NCBI RefSeq assembly: GCF_018336915.1
Contig: NZ_CP064923.1
Coordinates: 4,860,001-4,892,000 of the forward strand
Length of the DNA: 32,000 nucleotides
Source of the DNA: Acaryochloris marina S15
Lineage (GTDB): Bacteria > Cyanobacteriota > Cyanobacteriia > Thermosynechococcales > Thermosynechococcaceae
Reading direction: 5' to 3'
Below the pieces are notes generated by a model. That model was not told the origin of the DNA and did no database searches. It saw only the letters and a program-made list of their open reading frames with translations. Of this stretch, positions 1,132 through 31,473 are shown one piece after another (the first letter of the stretch is position 1; each line of letters starts with the position of its first letter). Position numbers and translations under genes: made by a program.

Positions 1132-1938
1132 TTAAATGCATGAGGTCTGTCCACCATCGACCAAAATTTCAACACCTGTCATCGAGGGTATGCAGCGTGC
1201 TCCAATAAACGCAACCAATCTTCCAATTTCTTCTGGATCAACAAATCGGCCAGTAGGAATTCGTAATTCTCGTTCTCTCAATACCTCCTCTCGAGCACAG
1301 CCTCGCATTCGGGCCTCCTCTTCTATGAGTCTTTCGATTCGTTTAGTTTTCGTGCTCCCAGGTGAAATAGTGATTACAGAAATGTTTTTATGAGCAAGTT
1401 TTTTTGCAAGCCCTTTTGAGAAATTAATAATGGCAGCATTAGCCATACTTCCAGGAAGAAAGTCTGGCCGGGGAGATCTCCCAGCACCACCAGCGATATT
1501 AATAATTGTTCCAGAACCAGACTCAACCAAATACGGAATTACCTCTTTTGCCATTCGAACATATCCAAATACCTTCAGTCTCCATGCTTCGTCGAAAACG
1601 CTAACATCAGACTCTGGAAACGCAGTCATAGGAGCAGATCCAGCACAGTTCACTAGTATATTGATCCGTTGAAACTTCTCCATTGCGAACGCTACTGCAG
1701 ACTCAGAAGCATCCTTATGTGAAAGGTCGCATGAATAAATTTGAATAGAACGATTTGAGTAATAAGGAGTTGCATCAATGATTGCGTTTCTAGCACTATC
1801 AAGCCGTTTTTCATCTCTGGCCACAAGCAATACTTCTGCTCCATATCCGGCTAAAACCTTCGCACAGTGAAAACCTATTCCCGAACTGCCACCAGTGACA
1901 ATTGCAGCTGATTGTGAAAGTCGATCAAACATTTGCAT
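1132..1938 (-). CDS. SDR-fold (short-chain dehydrogenase/reductase family) protein with atypical active site
   Basis: 268 aa. Rossmann motif TGGSSGIG, LLVARDEKR after beta2, NCAG (NNAG variant), PG motif ISPGSTKT. The expected Ser..YxxxK stretch reads NIAGGAG..PGSMANAA. ATG at 1938 (second ATG at 1932) overlaps the YciI stop. Confidence 0.85.
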   Translation of the reverse strand: MQMFDRLSQSAAIVTGGSSGIGFHCAKVLAGYGAEVLLVARDEKRLDSARNAIIDATPYYSNRSIQIYSCDLSHKDASESAVAFAMEKFQRINILVNCAGSAPMTAFPESDVSVFDEAWRLKVFGYVRMAKEVIPYLVESGSGTIINIAGGAGRSPRPDFLPGSMANAAIINFSKGLAKKLAHKNISVITISPGSTKTKRIERLIEEEARMRGCAREEVLRERELRIPTGRFVDPEEIGRLVAFIGARCIPSMTGVEILVDGGQTSCI

Positions 1939-2233
1939 TCACACCTAATATTGAGTTTAATTCGGGTAACCAACTTCCCAGCTCAAACTCGATTATTTCG
2001 TACTCTGCAACTCCTGCAATGCAAAACGGATCCTGCCTAGCAATCTCTTCAATGTCATCAAAGCTTTTGCCAACCGCAAGAATTACTCCACCCGTTCGAG
2101 GCCACTTTCGTCCTGAGAGTAAAAATGTTTGCGTCCTATAGTTTTCCCGCAGATAATCAAAATGGCGTTTTACAATTCGATCGACTTCTTCCAGTGGTTT
2201 TATATATGTGAGCAGGATTAAATGGGCTCTCAT
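1925..2233 (-). CDS. YciI-like family protein
   Basis: 102 aa. The size and the pattern RHFDYL...GGVILAV...ARQDPFCIAGV..YEI fit the YciI/DGPF fold. GAGG lies 9 nt upstream of the ATG. Confidence 0.75.
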   Translation of the reverse strand: MRAHLILLTYIKPLEEVDRIVKRHFDYLRENYRTQTFLLSGRKWPRTGGVILAVGKSFDDIEEIARQDPFCIAGVAEYEIIEFELGSWLPELNSILGVNANV

Positions 2234-2989: not shown

Positions 2990-3835
2990 CTAATGGGTTA
3001 ATTCGAGAAAATGGTAAATCGCTTCTGCGACTCCAGAGTCATTGTTACTACCAACAATATGTTTAGCCACTGCCTTCAGTTCGGGTACGGCATTATCAAC
3101 TGCAACCCCGAAGTGAGATTTTTCAACCATTTCTATATCGTTATACCCGTCCCCAATTGCCATGATCTTTTTTTGGGTGAGGCCCTCACTCTTCAAAGCA
3201 TGAATCATAGAATCCCACTTTGATACAAACGGGGATGTGCACTCGATGTAACCTAGTCGGGTCTTGATTATTTTCAATCTGTTTGAATTGAACTCTAGTG
3301 CCTGCTTGTAGACAGTGTCTTCAAGAGGAGATTCTGTGTGAGGATTATAGTTATTTGATATTTCCAGTGGATATACGAAGAACTTGTGAAAATTTCTACA
3401 ATCTAACTTAGTTAAGTCTGACCTATATTCAAATGTTGCTCCTGTCCGCTTCTTATAGTGATCTACCACCTTGTCATCAATCGTTGTCGTTGCGAAAATC
3501 GAATCATTTGAGAACAAGACAACATTATGGTTTCTAAGATCAAATTTATCTGTTAGGAATCGCATGTCAGAATAGTTCACGCATTCTTCATAACAAGTTG
3601 TGCTATCAGAAGAACGCAAAACCAATGCTCCGTTATAACAGACGAAATACGAAAAAAGTTCTTTTGACTCCCCAATAATTCGAGTAACAGCTTGTGGCAT
3701 TCTACCGGTTGCAACTATTAAACAAACGTTTTGTTCATGAGCAACCTGCAATGCTGTTATATTTTCTTCAGAAATTTTGTTGTCGGAGTTTAAAAGAGTG
3801 TGATCTAAGTCAAGGGCAATGGCTTTCATTTTCAT
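2990..3835 (-). CDS. Cof-type HAD-IIB phosphatase
   Basis: 281 aa. HAD motif I IALDLDHTLL, motif II VATGR, motif IV GDGYNDIEM. Its ATG overlaps the stop of the upstream EPSPS-like gene (ATGA). Confidence 0.85.
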   Translation of the reverse strand: MKMKAIALDLDHTLLNSDNKISEENITALQVAHEQNVCLIVATGRMPQAVTRIIGESKELFSYFVCYNGALVLRSSDSTTCYEECVNYSDMRFLTDKFDLRNHNVVLFSNDSIFATTTIDDKVVDHYKKRTGATFEYRSDLTKLDCRNFHKFFVYPLEISNNYNPHTESPLEDTVYKQALEFNSNRLKIIKTRLGYIECTSPFVSKWDSMIHALKSEGLTQKKIMAIGDGYNDIEMVEKSHFGVAVDNAVPELKAVAKHIVGSNNDSGVAEAIYHFLELTH

Positions 3836-5139
3836 ACCCTACACTGAAGTGTAGCTCCATGTTGATTTAGTATTTCAAGAAAGGAAGGAAAGCTCTCTTT
3901 ATATTCCCCAGCATCTAAAATCTGAGTTGAACCATTTGCCACAAGCGCAGCGACTATCATGCTCATTTCGATCCTGTGGTCTTTTTCTGACTTAACAACA
4001 CAACCCGCTAGTTTTTGCGGACCAACGACTGAAAAACCATCATTCCGTGGAGTGATTTTAGCTGAAAAAGGCGATAGAGAGGTAATAATTGAATCGATTC
4101 GATCAGTATCTTTTACGCGTAATTCAGCAGCATCTCTCACCGTAGTTGTCCCATGGGCTGCGAGTGAAAGTACGGCAAATATTGGGATTTCATCTATCAT
4201 AGTCAATACTTGATCACTTGATAGCTCTATACCTCTAAGTTTAGAGTGCCTTACTCGGATATCGCCACATGGTTCACCAGCAATATTATATTGATCTTCA
4301 ATTGATATACTTGCACCCATTTCACTAACCGCATTCAGCAAACCTATTCGACCTGGGTTCAAATTGACTCTTTCAATAGTTATGTCGCTTTCGGGAACTA
4401 GGATTGCAGCTGCAATAAGAAAGGACGCCGAACTCATGTCACCAGGGATTGAAACATTCAATGGATTTAATGTTGAGGGTCTAACGAAAATCTGCCCTGG
4501 AATCGATTCAATATTTGCGCCTTGGGCTCTTAATAGTCGGACTGAGTGGTCACGTATCGTTCCTTCATATGAAATTGTTGAATTGCTCGAGGCGTTTAAT
4601 GCGGCGAGCAGTAACGCAGTTTGTAACTGCCCGCTCGAAACTGGCATCCTATAATCGATCCCATTCAATTGGCCGCCCCTCATATATACAGGGGCATGGC
4701 CGTTAGTCGTTTCAACTGTAGCTCCCATTAAGCGCAATGGGAGCGCCACTCTCTCCATCGGTCTTTGATTTAATACATTATCCCCAATAAGATACACATC
4801 TGAAGGAACTGCTGCTAAAGCCCCCATAAAGAATCGCATCGTAGTAGCAGATCTCTTGCAATCGACGGTAATTTTCGGCCGATTGTACTCTAATAATGGG
4901 CATCCAGTTATTTTGGCTGTTGGCGATCCCTCACTGTTTGTGAAAATTTTAATTGGAACACCAAGGTTGACAAGTACATCAACCATATGACGAGTTGTGT
5001 TGGCATCGAGGATATTTTCAATAACTGAATTACCTCTTGCAAAGCTTGCAAATAACAGAGCACGGTGTGATATAGATTTATCGCCTGGTAATCTGACTCT
5101 TCCGAGTAGAGGTCCTGACCTTTTTATCTCAATAATCAT
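3832..5139 (-). CDS. aroA: 3-phosphoshikimate 1-carboxyvinyltransferase (EPSP synthase) family paralogue, class II-like, divergent PEP site
   Basis: 435 aa. LPGDKSISHRALLF, VSSGQLQTALLLAAL, RDHS, PGDMSSASF, IDEIPIFAV, AAELRVKDTDRI and DHRIEM fit EPSPS. The usual GN(A/S)GT(A/T)MR loop reads KRSATTMR, and RVKE reads RVKD. Confidence 0.85.
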   Translation of the reverse strand: MIIEIKRSGPLLGRVRLPGDKSISHRALLFASFARGNSVIENILDANTTRHMVDVLVNLGVPIKIFTNSEGSPTAKITGCPLLEYNRPKITVDCKRSATTMRFFMGALAAVPSDVYLIGDNVLNQRPMERVALPLRLMGATVETTNGHAPVYMRGGQLNGIDYRMPVSSGQLQTALLLAALNASSNSTISYEGTIRDHSVRLLRAQGANIESIPGQIFVRPSTLNPLNVSIPGDMSSASFLIAAAILVPESDITIERVNLNPGRIGLLNAVSEMGASISIEDQYNIAGEPCGDIRVRHSKLRGIELSSDQVLTMIDEIPIFAVLSLAAHGTTTVRDAAELRVKDTDRIDSIITSLSPFSAKITPRNDGFSVVGPQKLAGCVVKSEKDHRIEMSMIVAALVANGSTQILDAGEYKESFPSFLEILNQHGATLQCRV

Positions 5140-5997: not shown

Positions 5998-6855
5998 CTA
6001 AGAAGGGTTTTGAATCAAATTAAGACATTCTTGAAGGAATAGACAGTGTGACTTGTATAGAGTCGCTTCCCGGTTCACAGGCTTGCAAATACTTATGTGA
6101 TCTTCCTCTAGTGGAATTGCCTTTTCATGTGGAATGCGTGGCTCAGCACTTGTAGGATCAACAACAAGAAAACTGACCCCCGGGTTTATTGTGTGATTAA
6201 AGAAAGGAATCGTAATTCCTGGCTTAATCTTTTGTCTTTCGGCGAATGCACGACAAACCATTTTTCTGTTGCTAACTACTTTAAGAAATGCAGTGTGAAG
6301 CGAATTTAATTGACTACTGTGGTGCTGAAGTGCGGATACTTGTTCTGAAGTGTTTAACAGCAAACTAAAAAAATTTGCAAAGCTTGCCAAATTTGCCCCT
6401 GCATGTGGAGTTGCAATGAAACTCACACCTAAAACCTTTTCGCCGAGCAACTCCCACCTTGGGACATCCTGGGAAAATGCGTGAATTATCAACTGTTTTG
6501 CAACCAAACCACCTAAACTATGTGTAATGAAAATAATTGGCCGTGATCCTAATTCGCATGCCACCATTTCTTCGAGAATCGTGTCACCTAAATCCTCAAG
6601 CGGCATCGAATCCTTCACCCAAGCTGATATCGAACTGCTATACCCCATTGTCCAAATGTTTAGATTGGGAAAAGAGCGTGCGAGCCAATCTGGCCAGAAT
6701 TTCTCAACATCTTGTTCATAGGCCCATGTGGTTTGGGAACCACCACCAAGGCCATGAATGAAAATCACATCAGCATCTATATCATTGTGGTGGGCCAACA
6801 CTTCTGTTTCAAGTTTGAGACTTACTTTAGTTGCATCCACCAATTCTGTTCTCAA
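5998..6855 (-). CDS. Alpha/beta-hydrolase, DUF676/PGAP1-like (SesB-like) putative serine esterase/lipase
   Basis: 285 aa. VIFIHGLGGGSQTTW..FWPDWL..IWTMGY..PIIFITHSLGGLVAKQ (nucleophile elbow HSLGG), ATPHAG, late DH pair. TTG start at 6855 is preceded by GGAGGG 6-7 nt upstream. Confidence 0.8.
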   Translation of the reverse strand: MRTELVDATKVSLKLETEVLAHHNDIDADVIFIHGLGGGSQTTWAYEQDVEKFWPDWLARSFPNLNIWTMGYSSSISAWVKDSMPLEDLGDTILEEMVACELGSRPIIFITHSLGGLVAKQLIIHAFSQDVPRWELLGEKVLGVSFIATPHAGANLASFANFFSLLLNTSEQVSALQHHSSQLNSLHTAFLKVVSNRKMVCRAFAERQKIKPGITIPFFNHTINPGVSFLVVDPTSAEPRIPHEKAIPLEEDHISICKPVNREATLYKSHCLFLQECLNLIQNPS

Positions 6856-7243
6856 GGTTTACCCTCCGCTTCATAGGAACTTGCAAGCATTGGAGCATAA
6901 AATGTATCTTATCAAGAAAGTCTGGAAAGATTGGCTTCAACCCAGTGTTATGGAGATCTTCAGTTAAGCAAAGGCCTAAATCTCCAAACAAAGCTGCTTT
7001 CTAGCATATGGATTAAATGTGAACTGCAGAGCTATATGAGTACTACTACAATAAAGTAGACAACTTGCAGTCAAAACTCACAAAATAGTCGTCTAACGAT
7101 CCGTATTTACACAACGACATGAATGATCTCAAACATCAATTTGGAGAACGAATATCCAAGTTTATGACAGAGATAAAATATCCAATTCAGTAAATCTTTA
7201 ACTGTTTTCCTCACAAAGAACACGAGCATGATGCCTCCAATGT

Positions 7244-8491
7244 TTGGAGATAGAACAGTTGACATCTGATATACAATCCAAGAATCAGCCAGTAGACATC
7301 AACCTAAAGCACCCAAACTCCAACCTAAAACAAGTCGGAATCATCGGTGCAGGCCCAGCCGGACTAGCAACAGCAATCACCCTCAGAAAGCAAGGCATAG
7401 ATGTCCACATCTATGAACGCGCCAAAGCCTTTCGACCCATTGGCGCAGGCGTCACCCTATCCCCCAACGGCATCAGAAGCCTAGCCGCCATTGATGCCGA
7501 TATTGTCCAGCAACTTAAACAGCAAGGCTCACAACTCAATCGCTTCCGAATCAGAACCACTAGAGGATGGCCCATCCTCAACCAACCCGTCAAAGACGAC
7601 GAATACGATCAGCCCTTCCTAGCCATTCGCTGGTTTAGCCTCCAAGAAATCATGAGGGCCAAACTCCCCCCAGAAATCCTGCATCTCAATCATCAACTCA
7701 TTCACTTTGAGCAGACCCAGCAAGGCGTCAACCTGTCCTTTGAAAATGGCGAAACGGCAAGCGTTGATCTCCTCATTGGTGCAGACGGCATTCGTTCCGT
7801 CGTTCGTAAACAGCTCTTTGGCCTAGAAGACCCAGCCTATGGGGGCTGGATGACCTGGCGTGGTGTTCAAAAATATCAGCATCGTTTGCTCCCTCCTCAC
7901 CACACCACCATTTTTGCCACAGGCGGCAAGAGCCTAATTCTTCTAGATAACGCTCAAGGTTACGTTTCTTGGGCATTGGAGATGGCCACTCCCACCGTTA
8001 TTCGTTCCCAAAACCCCGAAGCAGCAAAAGCCCAAGTCCTCAAAGAACTCTCCAACTGGCATCCTGCCCTGCAAGAACTGATCAACCTAACAGATGCAAA
8101 TACGATCGTTGAAAGACCCGTTTGCGAACCTATGATCTTGCCTAAATGGAGCAAAGACAGAGTTACCCTAGTCGGGGATGCCGCCCATCCCATGGCCCCC
8201 TTTTTAGGACAGGGCACTAACACCACTTTTGAAGATGTGTTGGCACTGTCCACCTGTATCTCCCAACAGGAAACTCTAGAAGCCGTTTTAAAAAAGTACG
8301 AAGCCAGTCGTATAGAACGCGCCCATATCATTCAATATCGGACGATGTTTTCTGCAGCTCAAATGCGTAACCCTTTTCTGCGACCCCAATGGTTTAAGAC
8401 ACCATTAGGAACAGTGCCCAACCAAGCCAAAGTCAGTGAAAAAGCGTTTTCAGATTGGCTGTATCAGTATGATCCAAGCGCCCAAACTTAG
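7244..8491 (+). CDS. FAD-dependent aromatic-ring monooxygenase (salicylate-hydroxylase/UbiH-like)
   Basis: 415 aa. GxGxxG IIGAGPAGLA, GADGIRSVVR, GDAAHPMAPFLGQGTNTTFED. Only a TTG start is available after the in-frame stop at 7229. Confidence 0.85.
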   Translation: MEIEQLTSDIQSKNQPVDINLKHPNSNLKQVGIIGAGPAGLATAITLRKQGIDVHIYERAKAFRPIGAGVTLSPNGIRSLAAIDADIVQQLKQQGSQLNRFRIRTTRGWPILNQPVKDDEYDQPFLAIRWFSLQEIMRAKLPPEILHLNHQLIHFEQTQQGVNLSFENGETASVDLLIGADGIRSVVRKQLFGLEDPAYGGWMTWRGVQKYQHRLLPPHHTTIFATGGKSLILLDNAQGYVSWALEMATPTVIRSQNPEAAKAQVLKELSNWHPALQELINLTDANTIVERPVCEPMILPKWSKDRVTLVGDAAHPMAPFLGQGTNTTFEDVLALSTCISQQETLEAVLKKYEASRIERAHIIQYRTMFSAAQMRNPFLRPQWFKTPLGTVPNQAKVSEKAFSDWLYQYDPSAQT

Positions 8492-8658: not shown

Positions 8659-9789
8659 TTCAACCTTTAATTCAGAACTAAGTTAGTTCAGGAATTAGCC
8701 GTTGATGACAGGAGCAGTAAGAGCAACAGGAGCAGACTCACCAGCAGCCAAGTCTAAGGGGAAGTTATGAGCATTGCGCTCGTGCATAACTTCGAAACCT
8801 AGGTTTGCGCGGTTAAGAACGTCAGCCCATGTGTTCACAACGTTACCTTGTGAATCAACGATGGAGTGGTTGAAGTTGAATCCGTTCAAGTTGAAAGCCA
8901 TGGTGCTGATGCCCATTGCAGTCAACCAGATGCAGACAACGGGCCAGGCACCCAAGAAGAAGTGCAAGGAACGGCTGTTGCTGAAAGATGCATATTGGAA
9001 GATCAAACGACCGAAGTAGCCGTGGGCTGCAACGATGTTATAGGTCTCTTCCTCTTGGCCGAACTTGTAACCGTAGTTGGCGGACTCACCTTCGGTGGTC
9101 TCACGAACTAGGGTGGAGCTAACCAAGGAACCGTGCATGGCGGCGAATAAGGAACCACCCAAGACTCCAGCCACACCAAACATGTGGAAGGGGTGCATCA
9201 AGATGTTGTGCTCAGCTTGGAACACGAACATGAAGTTGAAGGTTCCGCTGATGCCTAGAGGCATGCCGTCGGAGAAGCTGCCCTGACCTAGTGGGTAGAT
9301 CAAGAAGACGGAGTAGGTAGCAGCCAATGGTGCAGAGTAAGCTACGCAAATCCAAGGACGCATCCCTAGGCGATAGCTATATTCCCACTGACGGCCTAGG
9401 TAGCAAATACAACCAATCATGTAATGGAAGATGATTAGCTGGTAAGGGCCACCGTTGTACAACCACTCGTCTAGAGAAGCTGCTTCCCAAATGGGATACA
9501 GGTGAAGACCAATAGCGTTAGAGGAAGGAACAACGGCACCAGTGATGATGTTGTTGCCATATAAAAGTGAACCAGCTACGGGCTCACGGATTCCATCGAT
9601 GTCGACGGGAGGGGCGCCAATAAAGGCGATTACGAAACAGGTTACAGCGGTGAGAAGGGTAGGAATCATCAATACGCCGAACCAACCGATGTATAAACGG
9701 TTGTTGGTGCTGGTGATGAAGCTACAGAATCTTTCCCATGCGCTGGCGCTTTCGCGTCTTTGCAAGACTGTTGTCATGGTTATGATTGC
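8659..9789. repeat. Tandem direct repeat unit 1 (psbA CDS plus 36 nt 3' and 12 nt 5' flank)
   Basis: My line-by-line comparison with 10129-11259 found all 1131 nt identical except 8691 g versus 10161 a. Period is 1470 bp. Confidence 0.95.
8695..9777 (-). CDS. psbA: Photosystem II reaction-centre protein D1 (copy 1)
   Basis: 360 aa, unmistakable D1. Tyr161, Asp170, Glu189, His190 and [13 protein letters not shown] are present. C-terminus is ..HNFPLDLA followed by a 16-aa extension. Residue 130 is Gln. Confidence 0.98.
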
Positions 9790-10130: not shown

Positions 10131-11259
10131 CAACCTTTAATTCAGAACTAAGTTAGTTCAAGAATTAGCCGTTGATGACAGGAGCAGTAAGAGCAACAGG
10201 AGCAGACTCACCAGCAGCCAAGTCTAAGGGGAAGTTATGAGCATTGCGCTCGTGCATAACTTCGAAACCTAGGTTTGCGCGGTTAAGAACGTCAGCCCAT
10301 GTGTTCACAACGTTACCTTGTGAATCAACGATGGAGTGGTTGAAGTTGAATCCGTTCAAGTTGAAAGCCATGGTGCTGATGCCCATTGCAGTCAACCAGA
10401 TGCAGACAACGGGCCAGGCACCCAAGAAGAAGTGCAAGGAACGGCTGTTGCTGAAAGATGCATATTGGAAGATCAAACGACCGAAGTAGCCGTGGGCTGC
10501 AACGATGTTATAGGTCTCTTCCTCTTGGCCGAACTTGTAACCGTAGTTGGCGGACTCACCTTCGGTGGTCTCACGAACTAGGGTGGAGCTAACCAAGGAA
10601 CCGTGCATGGCGGCGAATAAGGAACCACCCAAGACTCCAGCCACACCAAACATGTGGAAGGGGTGCATCAAGATGTTGTGCTCAGCTTGGAACACGAACA
10701 TGAAGTTGAAGGTTCCGCTGATGCCTAGAGGCATGCCGTCGGAGAAGCTGCCCTGACCTAGTGGGTAGATCAAGAAGACGGAGTAGGTAGCAGCCAATGG
10801 TGCAGAGTAAGCTACGCAAATCCAAGGACGCATCCCTAGGCGATAGCTATATTCCCACTGACGGCCTAGGTAGCAAATACAACCAATCATGTAATGGAAG
10901 ATGATTAGCTGGTAAGGGCCACCGTTGTACAACCACTCGTCTAGAGAAGCTGCTTCCCAAATGGGATACAGGTGAAGACCAATAGCGTTAGAGGAAGGAA
11001 CAACGGCACCAGTGATGATGTTGTTGCCATATAAAAGTGAACCAGCTACGGGCTCACGGATTCCATCGATGTCGACGGGAGGGGCGCCAATAAAGGCGAT
11101 TACGAAACAGGTTACAGCGGTGAGAAGGGTAGGAATCATCAATACGCCGAACCAACCGATGTATAAACGGTTGTTGGTGCTGGTGATGAAGCTACAGAAT
11201 CTTTCCCATGCGCTGGCGCTTTCGCGTCTTTGCAAGACTGTTGTCATGGTTATGATTGC
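10129..11259. repeat. Tandem direct repeat unit 2 (psbA CDS plus flanks)
   Basis: See unit 1. Identity breaks at 11260 (t versus g) and to the left of 10129. Confidence 0.95.
10165..11247 (-). CDS. psbA: Photosystem II reaction-centre protein D1 (copy 2, protein identical to copy 1)
   Basis: The 360-aa translation is identical to copy 1, and the CDS nucleotides were identical in my comparison. Confidence 0.98.
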
Positions 11260-19145: not shown

Positions 19146-20036
19146 CTATGGAGCAGGTGCTACCGTTGACTCATAGATAGGGGCTGGTTTTTCCCTAATG
19201 CGTTGGGCAATGGGTTGAACGCGTTTAACTACCTTGATCAAGTATTCATAATCAGGCGGCTGGGCATTGGAGATGTAACCCACCGAACGTTTTGTTTTGG
19301 GCGCAGCAGATTCTAAGGCATCCAATAGCTGAGTCTGTAAGACATTATCAACATCTGGCCCAATGAGTACTGCTCCTGAAGGCACCAAATGGGAGTCCCG
19401 ATGCAAAATCCGAAAGTCTGCATCCTTGAAATCGGCACGATATTGCCCTAATTCTGCCAAAGACAAAGCACCTGCAGCCACTTCCCCCTGATTGATCCAC
19501 TTCAATACCTCTTTAGGGGTGGAGCCAAATTTGATCTCGGCGAGGGTCAAACCATACAAATTAAAGACCGGAAAATAGTAGCCAGCCGCAGATCCTCTCT
19601 GACCTAAGGCAACAGTTGTGTTACTGAGATCTTTAATAGCCATAGCAGGGTGATCATCACGAACAACGATGACCGATCGTTCTTGATCTCCACCTTCACG
19701 AGGCAAGAGTGGAACATACTGAGCCTGAGAAATAGCGATTGCGGCCAACCCAGGAGGCGCAAAAACTAAATCCCAATTTTGCCGTTCAATCTGATCGATA
19801 GCCTGAATTTCATTGAGAGCAGGCTCTAATTCAATTAGGCTTTTTAATTCCGCCCCTAAATGCTCTTTTAATGCGGCATATTGCTCTAATGAGCGGGCCC
19901 CTTCACCATAACTAACCACACCGACCACTAATTTCTTCAAGGTTGTATTTTCAGTAGAGTCACAGGCTACCAACAACCACAAAATAGGTAATAAGAAAAC
20001 CAAAAAAAAACGGCGTGAATGCATCTTCAAGATCAT
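19146..20036 (-). CDS. PhnD-like (phosphate/phosphonate-type) periplasmic substrate-binding lipoprotein
   Basis: 296 aa. Signal peptide with lipobox LLVAC. A type-2 SBP pattern (VVGVVSYG.., DLVFAPPG, GSAAGYYFP) is reminiscent of PhnD. No permease or ATPase gene is adjacent. Confidence 0.65.
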   Translation of the reverse strand: MILKMHSRRFFLVFLLPILWLLVACDSTENTTLKKLVVGVVSYGEGARSLEQYAALKEHLGAELKSLIELEPALNEIQAIDQIERQNWDLVFAPPGLAAIAISQAQYVPLLPREGGDQERSVIVVRDDHPAMAIKDLSNTTVALGQRGSAAGYYFPVFNLYGLTLAEIKFGSTPKEVLKWINQGEVAAGALSLAELGQYRADFKDADFRILHRDSHLVPSGAVLIGPDVDNVLQTQLLDALESAAPKTKRSVGYISNAQPPDYEYLIKVVKRVQPIAQRIREKPAPIYESTVAPAP

Positions 20037-20263
20037 AAAAAAACTTCATCTAACTTATCTATGCTTGATCTTGTCGCGGTTCGTCTAGCTAGGCTAAGCT
20101 TGGAAATAGCTATAAGCTAGCAAAATCAATTGTTTCGAAGTATCACAATGACTAGAAGCGCAGAGGATAATATCCCAGGATAGACCACATTCTACAGTGA
20201 CATCAATAGAGAGTTGATCGTAGTAATAATTCTCCGTTTGAAAATAATTGTTTTACCTTTACA

Positions 20264-20289
20264 TGACTTAAAGGTCTGGTATTAAGTCA
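20264..20289. promoter_or_regulatory. Inverted repeat TGACTTAA-N10-TTAAGTCA in the divergent intergenic region
   Basis: 8-bp perfect arms, ending 54 nt upstream of the ATG at 20343. Candidate operator; no known consensus assigned. Confidence 0.25.
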
Positions 20290-20342
20290 CTCAGTCTTGA
20301 AGAATAATACTCACCATGAACAATAGCTAAGGAATCCTGCCA

Positions 20343-21263
20343 ATGTTCCAAAATCTCAAGTTGGGCGTCAAGCTAAACCTCATTTTGCTGTCGGTTTTCT
20401 TAATTATTGTTCTGATTAATGGTTTGCTTTTATCTAATATCCTGCAGAAGAATGCGGAGCAAGAAGTCAAGGATAAAGCCCTAGTCCTAATTGAGACCAT
20501 GACTTCTGTGCGCGAATATACCAGTAAGCAAGTAAACCAAGGGACAATCAAAAAGCTATCTCCTGAATTAGAGATTGATGGTCAGTTTGTCAAGACAAGC
20601 GTGCCTGGCTATTCCGCTCGGGAAGTCTTTAGTAACCTACAAAAACGTGAGCAGTACAGTGACTTCTTCTATAAAGAAGCAACCCTAAACCCTACTTATC
20701 CTCGCGATAAAGCCGATAGATTCGAAACTGAAGTCGTTGAAAAATTCCGCAGTCAACCAGATTTGCAAGAGCAAGTCGGTTTTCGCAAAATTTCAGCTGG
20801 AGACCTATTTTATATTGCACGACCTTTGCAGATTAAAAGTGAAAGTTGTTTAGTCTGCCACAGTACCCCTGAAAAAGCCCCCGCTAGCCAAATTAAAACC
20901 TACGGAGATACCGGTGGTTTTGGTTGGGAACTCAATGAGATTATTGGCGCTCAAATGATTTCCGTACCGGCCAGCAAGGTATTTGCAGAAGCTCGACGAT
21001 TGCAATTGCTTGTAATCGGCATCCTAGCAGCAGGCTTTATCGTTGCAGCCGTTATTCTCAACCTGTTCTTGAAATTCTCAATTATTACGCCCTTGACCAA
21101 AATGTCCAAGTGGTCACGAGATGTCAGCACAGGGGCGTCAGATACTGATTTTGAACATAAGCCTAATGATGAAATCGGGGTACTTGCAGCTTCTGTGAAC
21201 CGCTTGAAAGTCAGCTTGGAAATGGCAATGAATATGCTCAAGCAGAACCCTGACAATCCTTAA
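20343..21263 (+). CDS. Membrane-anchored c-type-heme DUF3365 (Tll0287-like) sensor domain plus HAMP, no output domain
   Basis: 306 aa. N-terminal TM, periplasmic domain with the heme-c motif CLVCH, second TM, then a HAMP-like ITPLTKM..DEIGVLAASVNRL. The protein ends about 25 aa later. Confidence 0.75.
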   Translation: MFQNLKLGVKLNLILLSVFLIIVLINGLLLSNILQKNAEQEVKDKALVLIETMTSVREYTSKQVNQGTIKKLSPELEIDGQFVKTSVPGYSAREVFSNLQKREQYSDFFYKEATLNPTYPRDKADRFETEVVEKFRSQPDLQEQVGFRKISAGDLFYIARPLQIKSESCLVCHSTPEKAPASQIKTYGDTGGFGWELNEIIGAQMISVPASKVFAEARRLQLLVIGILAAGFIVAAVILNLFLKFSIITPLTKMSKWSRDVSTGASDTDFEHKPNDEIGVLAASVNRLKVSLEMAMNMLKQNPDNP

Positions 21264-31399: not shown

Positions 31400-31473
31400 C
31401 GGGATGTAGCGCAGCTTGGTAGCGCGCCTGCTTTGGGAGCAGGATGTCGCAGGTTCGAATCCTGTCATCCCGA
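31400..31473 (+). tRNA. tRNA-Pro (anticodon UGG)
   Basis: Hand-folded 74-nt cloverleaf. Acceptor CGGGATG/CATCCCG, D stem GCGC/GCGC, anticodon stem CCTGC/GCAGG with loop TTTGGGA, T arm GCAGG-TTCGAAT-CCTGT, discriminator A. CCA is not encoded. Confidence 0.9.

Follow-up and report, generated by a model that had tools for sequence, protein, structure and literature searches.

The 32,000-nucleotide stretch of Acaryochloris marina S15 analysed here (contig NZ_CP064923.1, positions 4,860,001 to 4,892,000; hereafter the window) encodes a paralogue of 5-enolpyruvylshikimate-3-phosphate (EPSP) synthase (EPSPS, encoded by aroA) in which the catalytic glutamate, Glu341 in the numbering of the Escherichia coli enzyme that we use for active-site residues unless stated otherwise, is replaced by aspartate. 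Judged from sequence comparison, the protein appears to be a variant within a known enzyme family, altered at position 341 and carried in a rare but conserved, mobile phosphatase/oxygenase cassette that turns up again in unrelated bacteria; its probable role is to feed or protect a side branch of the shikimate pathway, not to serve as the housekeeping aroA. EPSP synthase is the target of glyphosate and among the best-studied enzyme targets, and Glu341 is held to be an invariant catalytic residue. A natural subfamily in which this residue is replaced, and which is wired to a phosphatase and an Fe(II)/2-oxoglutarate (2OG) oxygenase, points either to an undescribed branch at shikimate-3-phosphate (S3P) or EPSP or to a natural resistance system.

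The gene reads from an ATG at position 5139 to a TGA at 3832-3834 on the minus strand, the plus-strand reading of 3832..5139 being ruled out by stops throughout, and exact look-up identifies its product as NCBI QUY41896.1 / WP_212663085.1 of A. marina. Profile searches place the protein in the EPSPS family: it scores 313 bits on the Pfam model EPSP_synthase (PF00275), covering positions 3-417 of 417, and passes the aroA equivalog model TIGR01356 (336.9 bits, cutoff 287.25). It falls short of the MurA/NikO-type models TIGR01072 (77 bits against 392.7) and NF006873 (86 bits against 297). An AlphaFold2 model of high confidence (predicted local distance difference test score (pLDDT) 93.3, predicted template modelling score 0.91) adopts the two-domain inside-out alpha/beta barrel fold, and its best structural match is the liganded class II AroA of Coxiella (template modelling (TM) score 0.94, about 1.9 Å); CP4 follows at 0.92, the class I enzyme of E. 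coli at 0.86 and MurA at 0.80. In phmmer searches the protein scores 276 bits to Coxiella versus 134 bits to E. coli, and by both sequence and TM score it is closer to class II references (Coxiella, CP4, S. pneumoniae) than to those of class I (E. coli, Vibrio, plants), Coxiella being used as the class II reference in a bioRxiv preprint (10.1101/2020.05.27.118265). With the class II enzymes of Coxiella burnetii (3SLH/3TR1), Agrobacterium CP4 (2GG6) and Bacillus halodurans (3RMT) it shares the fold (best chains at TM 0.90-0.95, root-mean-square deviation about 2 Å), 33-37% identity and the same ligands for S3P and phosphoenolpyruvate (PEP), and with CP4 also the alanine at the position of Gly96 (Ala100 of CP4). 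It differs from all of them in having Asp for Glu341 and Arg for Asn94, and in residing in an accessory operon with a phosphatase and a 2OG oxygenase instead of among aromatic amino-acid genes.

An earlier note, made from the letters of the window, had described this protein as an EPSPS scaffold with a retained S3P side and a remodelled PEP side, and had made its interpretation hinge on whether the loop KRSATTMR is homologous to the GNAGTAMR loop of E. coli AroA. The motifs that it quoted are all present in the translation (within LPGDKSISHR, DCKRSATTMRF, VSSGQ, RDHS, PGDMSSASF, IDEIP, RVKDTDR and KDHR), and the homology of the loop is upheld by two alignments. With phmmer, CKRSATTMR falls opposite GNSGTT(T/A)xR of the class II structures, and a MAFFT alignment that included E. 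coli AroA, as a reference sequence 100% identical to 1G6S, yields G93K, N94R, A95S, G96A, T97T, R100R and E341D. In the paralogue's own numbering, K95, R96, A98, T99 and R102 are thus equivalent to G93, N94, G96, T97 and R100, and within RVKDTDR K343 and R347 are equivalent to K340 and R344. The S3P side is retained as described, with K22, S23, R27, T97, S169 and K340 all kept (as K21, S22, R26, T99, S169 and K343). The statement about the PEP side does not hold for the window protein, in which K22 and the PEP-binding residues R124, Q171, D313, R344, H385 and R386 are intact (the last six as R126, Q171, D316, R347, H388 and R389). It does fit the subfamily as a group, in which position 171 is Ser, His, His and Glu in the four other members introduced below. 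What the window protein lacks is the catalytic Glu341 of EPSP synthases, whose place is taken by Asp344 (codon GAT, 4108-4110). Loss of K411, considered as an extra change, is ruled out, since this position is not conserved among class II-type relatives.

Which of these substitutions are unusual can be judged from the relatives. The nearest are about 50% identical, those with a source name stem from Anaerolineae/Chloroflexi, and the protein appears to lie outside the cyanobacterial aroA lineage. Of 115 relatives, 89 have Ala and 26 have Gly at position 96, while at position 94 there are 79 with Gly, 25 with Asn and 11 with Arg. The N94R/G96A loop, which had first drawn attention as the special mark of the protein, therefore falls within the normal variation of its nearest ordinary relatives and is ruled out as a distinguishing feature. 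Since these loop states are ordinary in the clade, they would predict only a generic class II/CP4-like insensitivity to glyphosate, to be expected of most relatives too. The same change from Gly to Ala at the PEP-phosphate/glyphosate site is present in E. coli AroA G96A (1MI4) and in engineered glyphosate-insensitive variants; unlike these, Ala96 of the window protein is natural and ancestral to its clade and is no recent resistance mutation. To our knowledge, no engineered or field variant of EPSPS has an altered Glu341.

The discriminating change is E341D, which is found only in paralogues linked to a TauD-family gene. Glu341 is present in 285 of the 288 relatives with a recognisable motif, and the three with Asp are the window protein (P0001) and two metagenomic proteins, P0041 and P0084; a fourth Asp341 gene, truncated in the public gene call, lies at locus L098. 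When a profile of P0001, P0041 and P0084 was run against 5.8 billion clusters, the trio scored 795-820 bits and the next sequence 671 bits, and an exhaustive HMMER scan of 1.84 billion representatives, judged by its 150 best matches, brought the Asp341 group no new member. Because Asp341 recurs in three other independent sequences, with 42-57% protein identity, it goes beyond what chance or error would produce. Thirteen active-site positions are 100% invariant among 164 canonical relatives (K22, S23, R27, R100, R124, S169, Q171, D313, K340, E341, R344, H385 and R386), and the window protein keeps every one of them except E341. The Anaerolineae/Chloroflexi-type aroA proteins (for example P0002, P0007, P0008 and P0127) are 46-51% identical to it and have the xxSATTMR loop and natural Ala96 in common with it; they are distinguished from it by Glu341, which together with Gln171 occurs in all of them, and mostly by Gly94. 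Positions 118 and 120, most commonly His and Gly in these proteins, are Asp and Val/Ile in the Asp341 group. A neighbour-joining tree groups the window protein with P0084 and the L098 protein at 85% bootstrap. It did not recover the four Asp341 proteins as one clade; a single origin is nevertheless plausible from their common Asp118 and non-Gly120.

All four Asp341 genes precede a gene for a small TauD-family oxygenase, and in three of them a HAD phosphatase gene intervenes. The order EPSPS-HAD-TauD is common to the window, to L002 (the locus of P0084) and to L098, each time with a 4-nt overlap between the EPSPS and HAD genes; in the window the ATG of the HAD gene overlaps the TGA of the EPSPS gene as ATGA. 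Partners of the paralogue in its operon thus recur with Asp341 genes elsewhere (L001, L002 and L098). At L001, P0041 is followed by TauD and then by a shikimate operon consisting of aroQ, a second divergent EPSPS homologue, aroK, aroE and aroB. This second homologue (L001, 13060-14382) is 25% identical to the window protein and passes the aroA cutoff; at R100, R124, S169 and Q171 it has Phe, Gln, Cys and Pro, in an alignment that is perhaps unreliable at 25% identity. A fifth TauD-linked paralogue emerged from a metagenome scan with a TauD profile, at L084 (1239-4534), where aroB, TauD, the paralogue and a canonical actinobacterial aroA follow one another. Despite E341K, Q171E, T97A and N94M, its score on the aroA equivalog model is 345 bits. 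Across the five paralogues, position 341 is thus Asp four times and Lys once, Gln171 is retained in the window protein, Ala stands at position 23 in two and at position 97 in one, and the four Asp341 members all have Arg at position 94. All of them, the E341K form included, pass the aroA equivalog cutoff and are labelled ordinary aroA by curated models, a point of concern for surveys in which EPSPS sequences are used to predict sensitivity to glyphosate.

The cassette also occurs in a form that has no EPSPS gene. At L100 the order FGE, HAD, TauD, YciI and short-chain dehydrogenase/reductase (SDR) is that of the window, at 35-45% identity, with the YciI (45% identical) and SDR (42%) homologues in the window position, and L097, from a Bryobacterales metagenome-assembled genome, has a helix-turn-helix (HTH)-FGE fusion, HAD and TauD. 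HAD homologues occupy the matching position in L002, L098, L097 and L100, and FGE homologues 45-47% identical to that of the window lie directly upstream of HAD-TauD in L097 and L100. In L097 (7996-9090) the FGE/DUF323 domain is fused to an XRE-type HTH domain, and given this fusion the FGE-like domain of the cassette may be a ligand sensor or regulator, not an enzyme. No alpha/beta-hydrolase was seen in the other cassettes. A shikimate kinase gene is coupled to the TauD gene or near it in L096, L099, L098 and L001, and the L098 module sits between a transposase and integrases. The conserved core is accordingly HAD-TauD, often with FGE, YciI and SDR; an EPSPS paralogue with a changed position 341 is inserted there repeatedly, but not in every case. 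With three to seven genes the cassette is small, and heterologous expression would be easy.

The TauD subfamily that unites these loci is sharply bounded: about 17 clusters score 182-365 bits, and the next score is 129 bits. At 7 of about 14 loci examined, an EPSPS homologue is found no more than 8 kb away. The TauD model (pLDDT 94.9) has BBOX1 and TmpA as its nearest folds, and sequence and fold searches returned generic relatives only (BBOX1, TmpA, DfmD, IsnB/PvcB, aryloxyalkanoate dioxygenases, CarC and CsiD), none of which points to a particular substrate. At five sampled loci (L101 174-1888, L104 1075-2907, L105 1483-3392, L102 159-1395 and L083 705-2134) the neighbours of the TauD gene are genes for diphosphomevalonate-decarboxylase-like or mevalonate-kinase-like proteins, a NUDIX hydrolase or a histidine phosphatase, and each of these loci has a neighbour enzyme acting on a phosphorylated small molecule. 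A larger biosynthetic cluster is present on two related metagenomic contigs, L096 (3865-19570) and L099 (whole locus), in which the shikimate kinase gene is coupled to TauD; in L096 the two genes overlap by 4 nt, and a nonribosomal peptide synthetase condensation domain follows the cluster. It begins with genes for an NDK-like protein, a methyltransferase, the shikimate kinase, the TauD-subfamily protein, a DAO/FAD oxidase and an APH kinase, and continues with a ROK kinase, a HAD protein, a Gfo/Idh/MocA oxidoreductase, a DegT aminotransferase, a TMK-like protein and a class I-like EPSPS, the last encoded about 7 kb downstream of TauD, with the loop RQSGTTSR and a normal Glu341. The ROK/HAD/Gfo/DegT set resembles the RifN/M/L/K kanosamine genes.

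The explanation that we favour, at a probability of about 0.45, is that the window protein is a dedicated branch-point enzyme whose product is dephosphorylated and then oxidised. Such a scheme fits best because the S3P site is intact, shikimate genes are frequent neighbours and the EPSPS gene is translationally coupled to that of a phosphatase. The residue states, the fold, the synteny, the rarity of the subfamily and the translational coupling are direct results of the analysis; from them we infer what the enzymes act on, in which order, and what they make. The enzyme would bind S3P via its fully conserved S3P site and move the enolpyruvyl group of PEP, or of a very close analogue, to the 5-OH, which would provide a pool of an EPSP-type enol ether for the side branch. 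The co-translated HAD phosphatase would then strip off the 3-phosphate, so that the compound leaves the route to chorismate synthase, the TauD-type oxygenase would oxidise the dephosphorylated product, and YciI and the SDR may tailor it further. Glu341 acts as general acid/base, protonating PEP C3 and acting on the tetrahedral intermediate. Asp341 would pull back this carboxylate, and the rate or the partitioning at the PEP C3/tetrahedral-intermediate step might be altered; Ala96 could confer a CP4-like glyphosate insensitivity as a by-product. The logic of the cassette resembles that of nikkomycin and polyoxin biosynthesis, in which an enolpyruvyl transfer by NikO/PolA is followed, later in the pathway, by a phosphatase and a 2OG-dioxygenase step. 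The superfamily fold is common to MurA, NikO, PolA and the window protein, which is unlike NikO and MurA in having an intact S3P acceptor site and no nucleotide site, and its cassette has no radical-SAM partner.

Several observations speak against this branch-point scheme. FGE-HAD-TauD(-YciI-SDR) without an EPSPS gene in L097 and L100 implies that the enzyme is dispensable in some hosts, which fits a supply role and equally a resistance role. A pure supply isozyme would not need a changed invariant catalytic residue, and the replacement of Q171 in the other four TauD-linked paralogues hints at a non-standard handling of the donor. In the neighbour-joining tree P0041 does not join the other Asp341 proteins but takes a basal position in the canonical Anaerolineae-type clade. 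Moreover, since TauD genes also lie beside mevalonate-pathway, NUDIX and histidine phosphatase genes, on short contigs that carry no EPSPS, the substrate of the oxygenase need not be derived from shikimate.

It is possible, if unlikely, that the paralogue confers self-resistance: HAD-TauD(-YciI-SDR) would make, or the cell would meet, an antimetabolite directed against EPSPS, and the paralogue with Ala96, Arg94 and Asp341 would be an insensitive isozyme that sustains the supply of aromatic amino acids. That cassettes occur with and without an EPSPS gene is what one would expect of an optional immunity gene, and the substituted residues are, by alignment, those in contact with glyphosate or with the cationic intermediate, as is established for 1G6S and CP4. 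The paralogue moreover adjoins another aroA-type gene in L001 and L084, and the mobile-element genes flanking the L098 module point in the same direction. However, the stop/start overlap of the EPSPS and HAD genes in three lineages suggests consecutive enzymes and not a stand-alone copy of a target, while Ser, His, His and Glu at position 171 of the other members and the one E341K are hard to square with normal EPSPS catalysis. Literature searches found no natural antimetabolite directed against EPSPS, and the cassette contains no export genes or obvious scaffold-building genes. A divergent EPSPS copy embedded in the conserved accessory cluster is seen in the window, L001, L002 and L098. More doubtful still is that HAD-TauD(-YciI-SDR) itself turns a shikimate intermediate into such an antimetabolite, with the Asp341/Arg94/Ala96 paralogue as the dedicated immunity enzyme. 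If this were true, glyphosate and its resistant EPSPS would have a natural equivalent, one that moves between phyla.

A further scenario is that the chemistry has changed, so that a site with Asp341 and Arg94 (and His or Ser at 171 in relatives) makes no EPSP and instead uses another carboxyvinyl-type donor or a modified S3P, or forms an arrested or ketal-type adduct, for HAD and TauD to act upon. The changes focus on the invariant positions 341 and 171 and on the phosphate-facing loop across five TauD-linked paralogues; the role of Glu341 at PEP C3, the recurrence of Asp341 in proteins only 42-48% identical to one another and, in the other members, the loss of Gln171 would strengthen it. Yet the window protein itself is changed only conservatively, from Glu to Asp, and keeps Q171 and the other PEP ligands. 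The conserved core also holds no gene for making an alternative donor, and cassettes lacking the paralogue would have no substrate unless the gene were encoded elsewhere. On balance we consider an altered chemistry unlikely, if a serious variant of the branch-point scheme. The plainest account, that of a normal, redundant aroA acquired horizontally in which E341D is tolerated and the neighbours are coincidental, seems still less likely to us. The protein does pass the curated aroA threshold, its EPSPS fold is modelled with high confidence, and Asp and Glu are chemically alike; but against it stand the near-invariance of Glu341 in the relatives and the fact that four Asp341 genes and one Lys341 gene, in different lineages, adjoin members of one very rare TauD subfamily. 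By a rough estimate, the probability that a single-copy gene would lie by chance next to a 17-cluster family at five loci or more is negligible, and the EPSPS and HAD genes are translationally coupled.

Table 1. Features of the window discussed in the text; positions are those of the 32,000-nucleotide stretch.
Feature	Position	Strand	Basis
EPSP-synthase paralogue, E341D subfamily, 435 aa	3832..5139	minus	open reading frame and translation, Pfam, TIGR01356
Loop CKRSATTMR, codons 94-102 (E. coli 92-100)	4834..4860	minus	alignments
RVKDTDR, codons 341-347	4099..4119	minus	alignments; D344 replaces catalytic Glu341
Alpha/beta-hydrolase, 285 aa, first operon gene	5998..6855	minus	weak DUF676, PGAP1 and Abhydrolase_6 matches; NCBI name esterase/lipase
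FGE-sulfatase/DUF323-domain protein, 273 aa	5150..5971	minus	Pfam FGE-sulfatase, 134 bits; directly upstream of the EPSPS gene
Cof-type HAD-IIB phosphatase, 281 aa	2990..3835	minus	Hydrolase_3, 177 bits; TIGR00099, 161 bits
Minimal TauD-family Fe(II)/2OG oxygenase, 231 aa	2270..2965	minus	Pfam TauD; invariant residues H77, D79, H212, R223
YciI-family protein, 102 aa, conserved cassette member	1925..2233	minus	Pfam YCII
SDR, 268 aa, last operon gene	1132..1938	minus	adh_short
Divergent intergenic region, presumed operon promoter region	6856..7243		map of open reading frames

In the window the EPSPS gene is the third of seven closely packed genes on the minus strand (Table 1), flanked on one side by uvrA and on the other by a divergent FAD monooxygenase gene followed by two copies of psbA. 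The guanine-plus-cytosine (GC) content of the operon block is 0.39-0.44 versus 0.47-0.53 in the flanks. Six of the seven operon proteins have exact matches among the 15 billion proteins of one collection, where five form 90% clusters of their own and the SDR is clustered with a single further sequence; the HAD sequence as translated had no exact match there. A look-up of contigs by the exact sequence of the EPSPS paralogue returned no record. The suspicion that the operon is accessory is borne out by this low GC content and by proteins that are alone, or nearly so, in their clusters. In GTDB genomes scanned with the TauD profile, 80 loci matched, with identities of 32% at best; no EPSPS gene lies near any of them, and none is in an Acaryochloris bearing the island. 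From its lineage, GC content and rarity, and from this lack of island-bearing Acaryochloris among the GTDB matches, we infer that the paralogue is not the housekeeping aroA; the best explanation would be that it was acquired by horizontal transfer within the seven-gene accessory operon. No cassette was found in the plasmid database, whose matches were ordinary aroA genes of at most 40% identity and a single distant TauD, and a search for flanking direct or inverted repeats that might mark an insertion returned only short matches at chance level. No riboswitch was detected in the operon leader, Rfam reporting over the whole window only a tRNA at 31400-31473. Literature searches on the cassette, on Glu341 variants, on EPSPS paralogues as resistance genes and on EPSPS/aroA of Acaryochloris found nothing relevant.

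Among the remaining genes of the window, one for a PhnD-like phosphonate-binding protein lies beside one for a Tll0287-like/HAMP protein (19146-21263), about 14 kb from the EPSPS gene, and no link to the cassette was found. The divergent gene next to the operon (7244-8491, plus strand) encodes an FAD-dependent monooxygenase of the aromatic-ring type, whose best NCBIfam match is HpxO-like and far below cutoff. The tandem psbA genes (D1, 360 aa) lie at 8695-9777 and 10165-11247 on the minus strand. But for a single mismatch, their DNA is identical over the whole coding region and beyond it, for about 12 nt on the upstream side and about 40 nt on the downstream side, while the outer flanks differ, which suggests a recent duplication or gene conversion.

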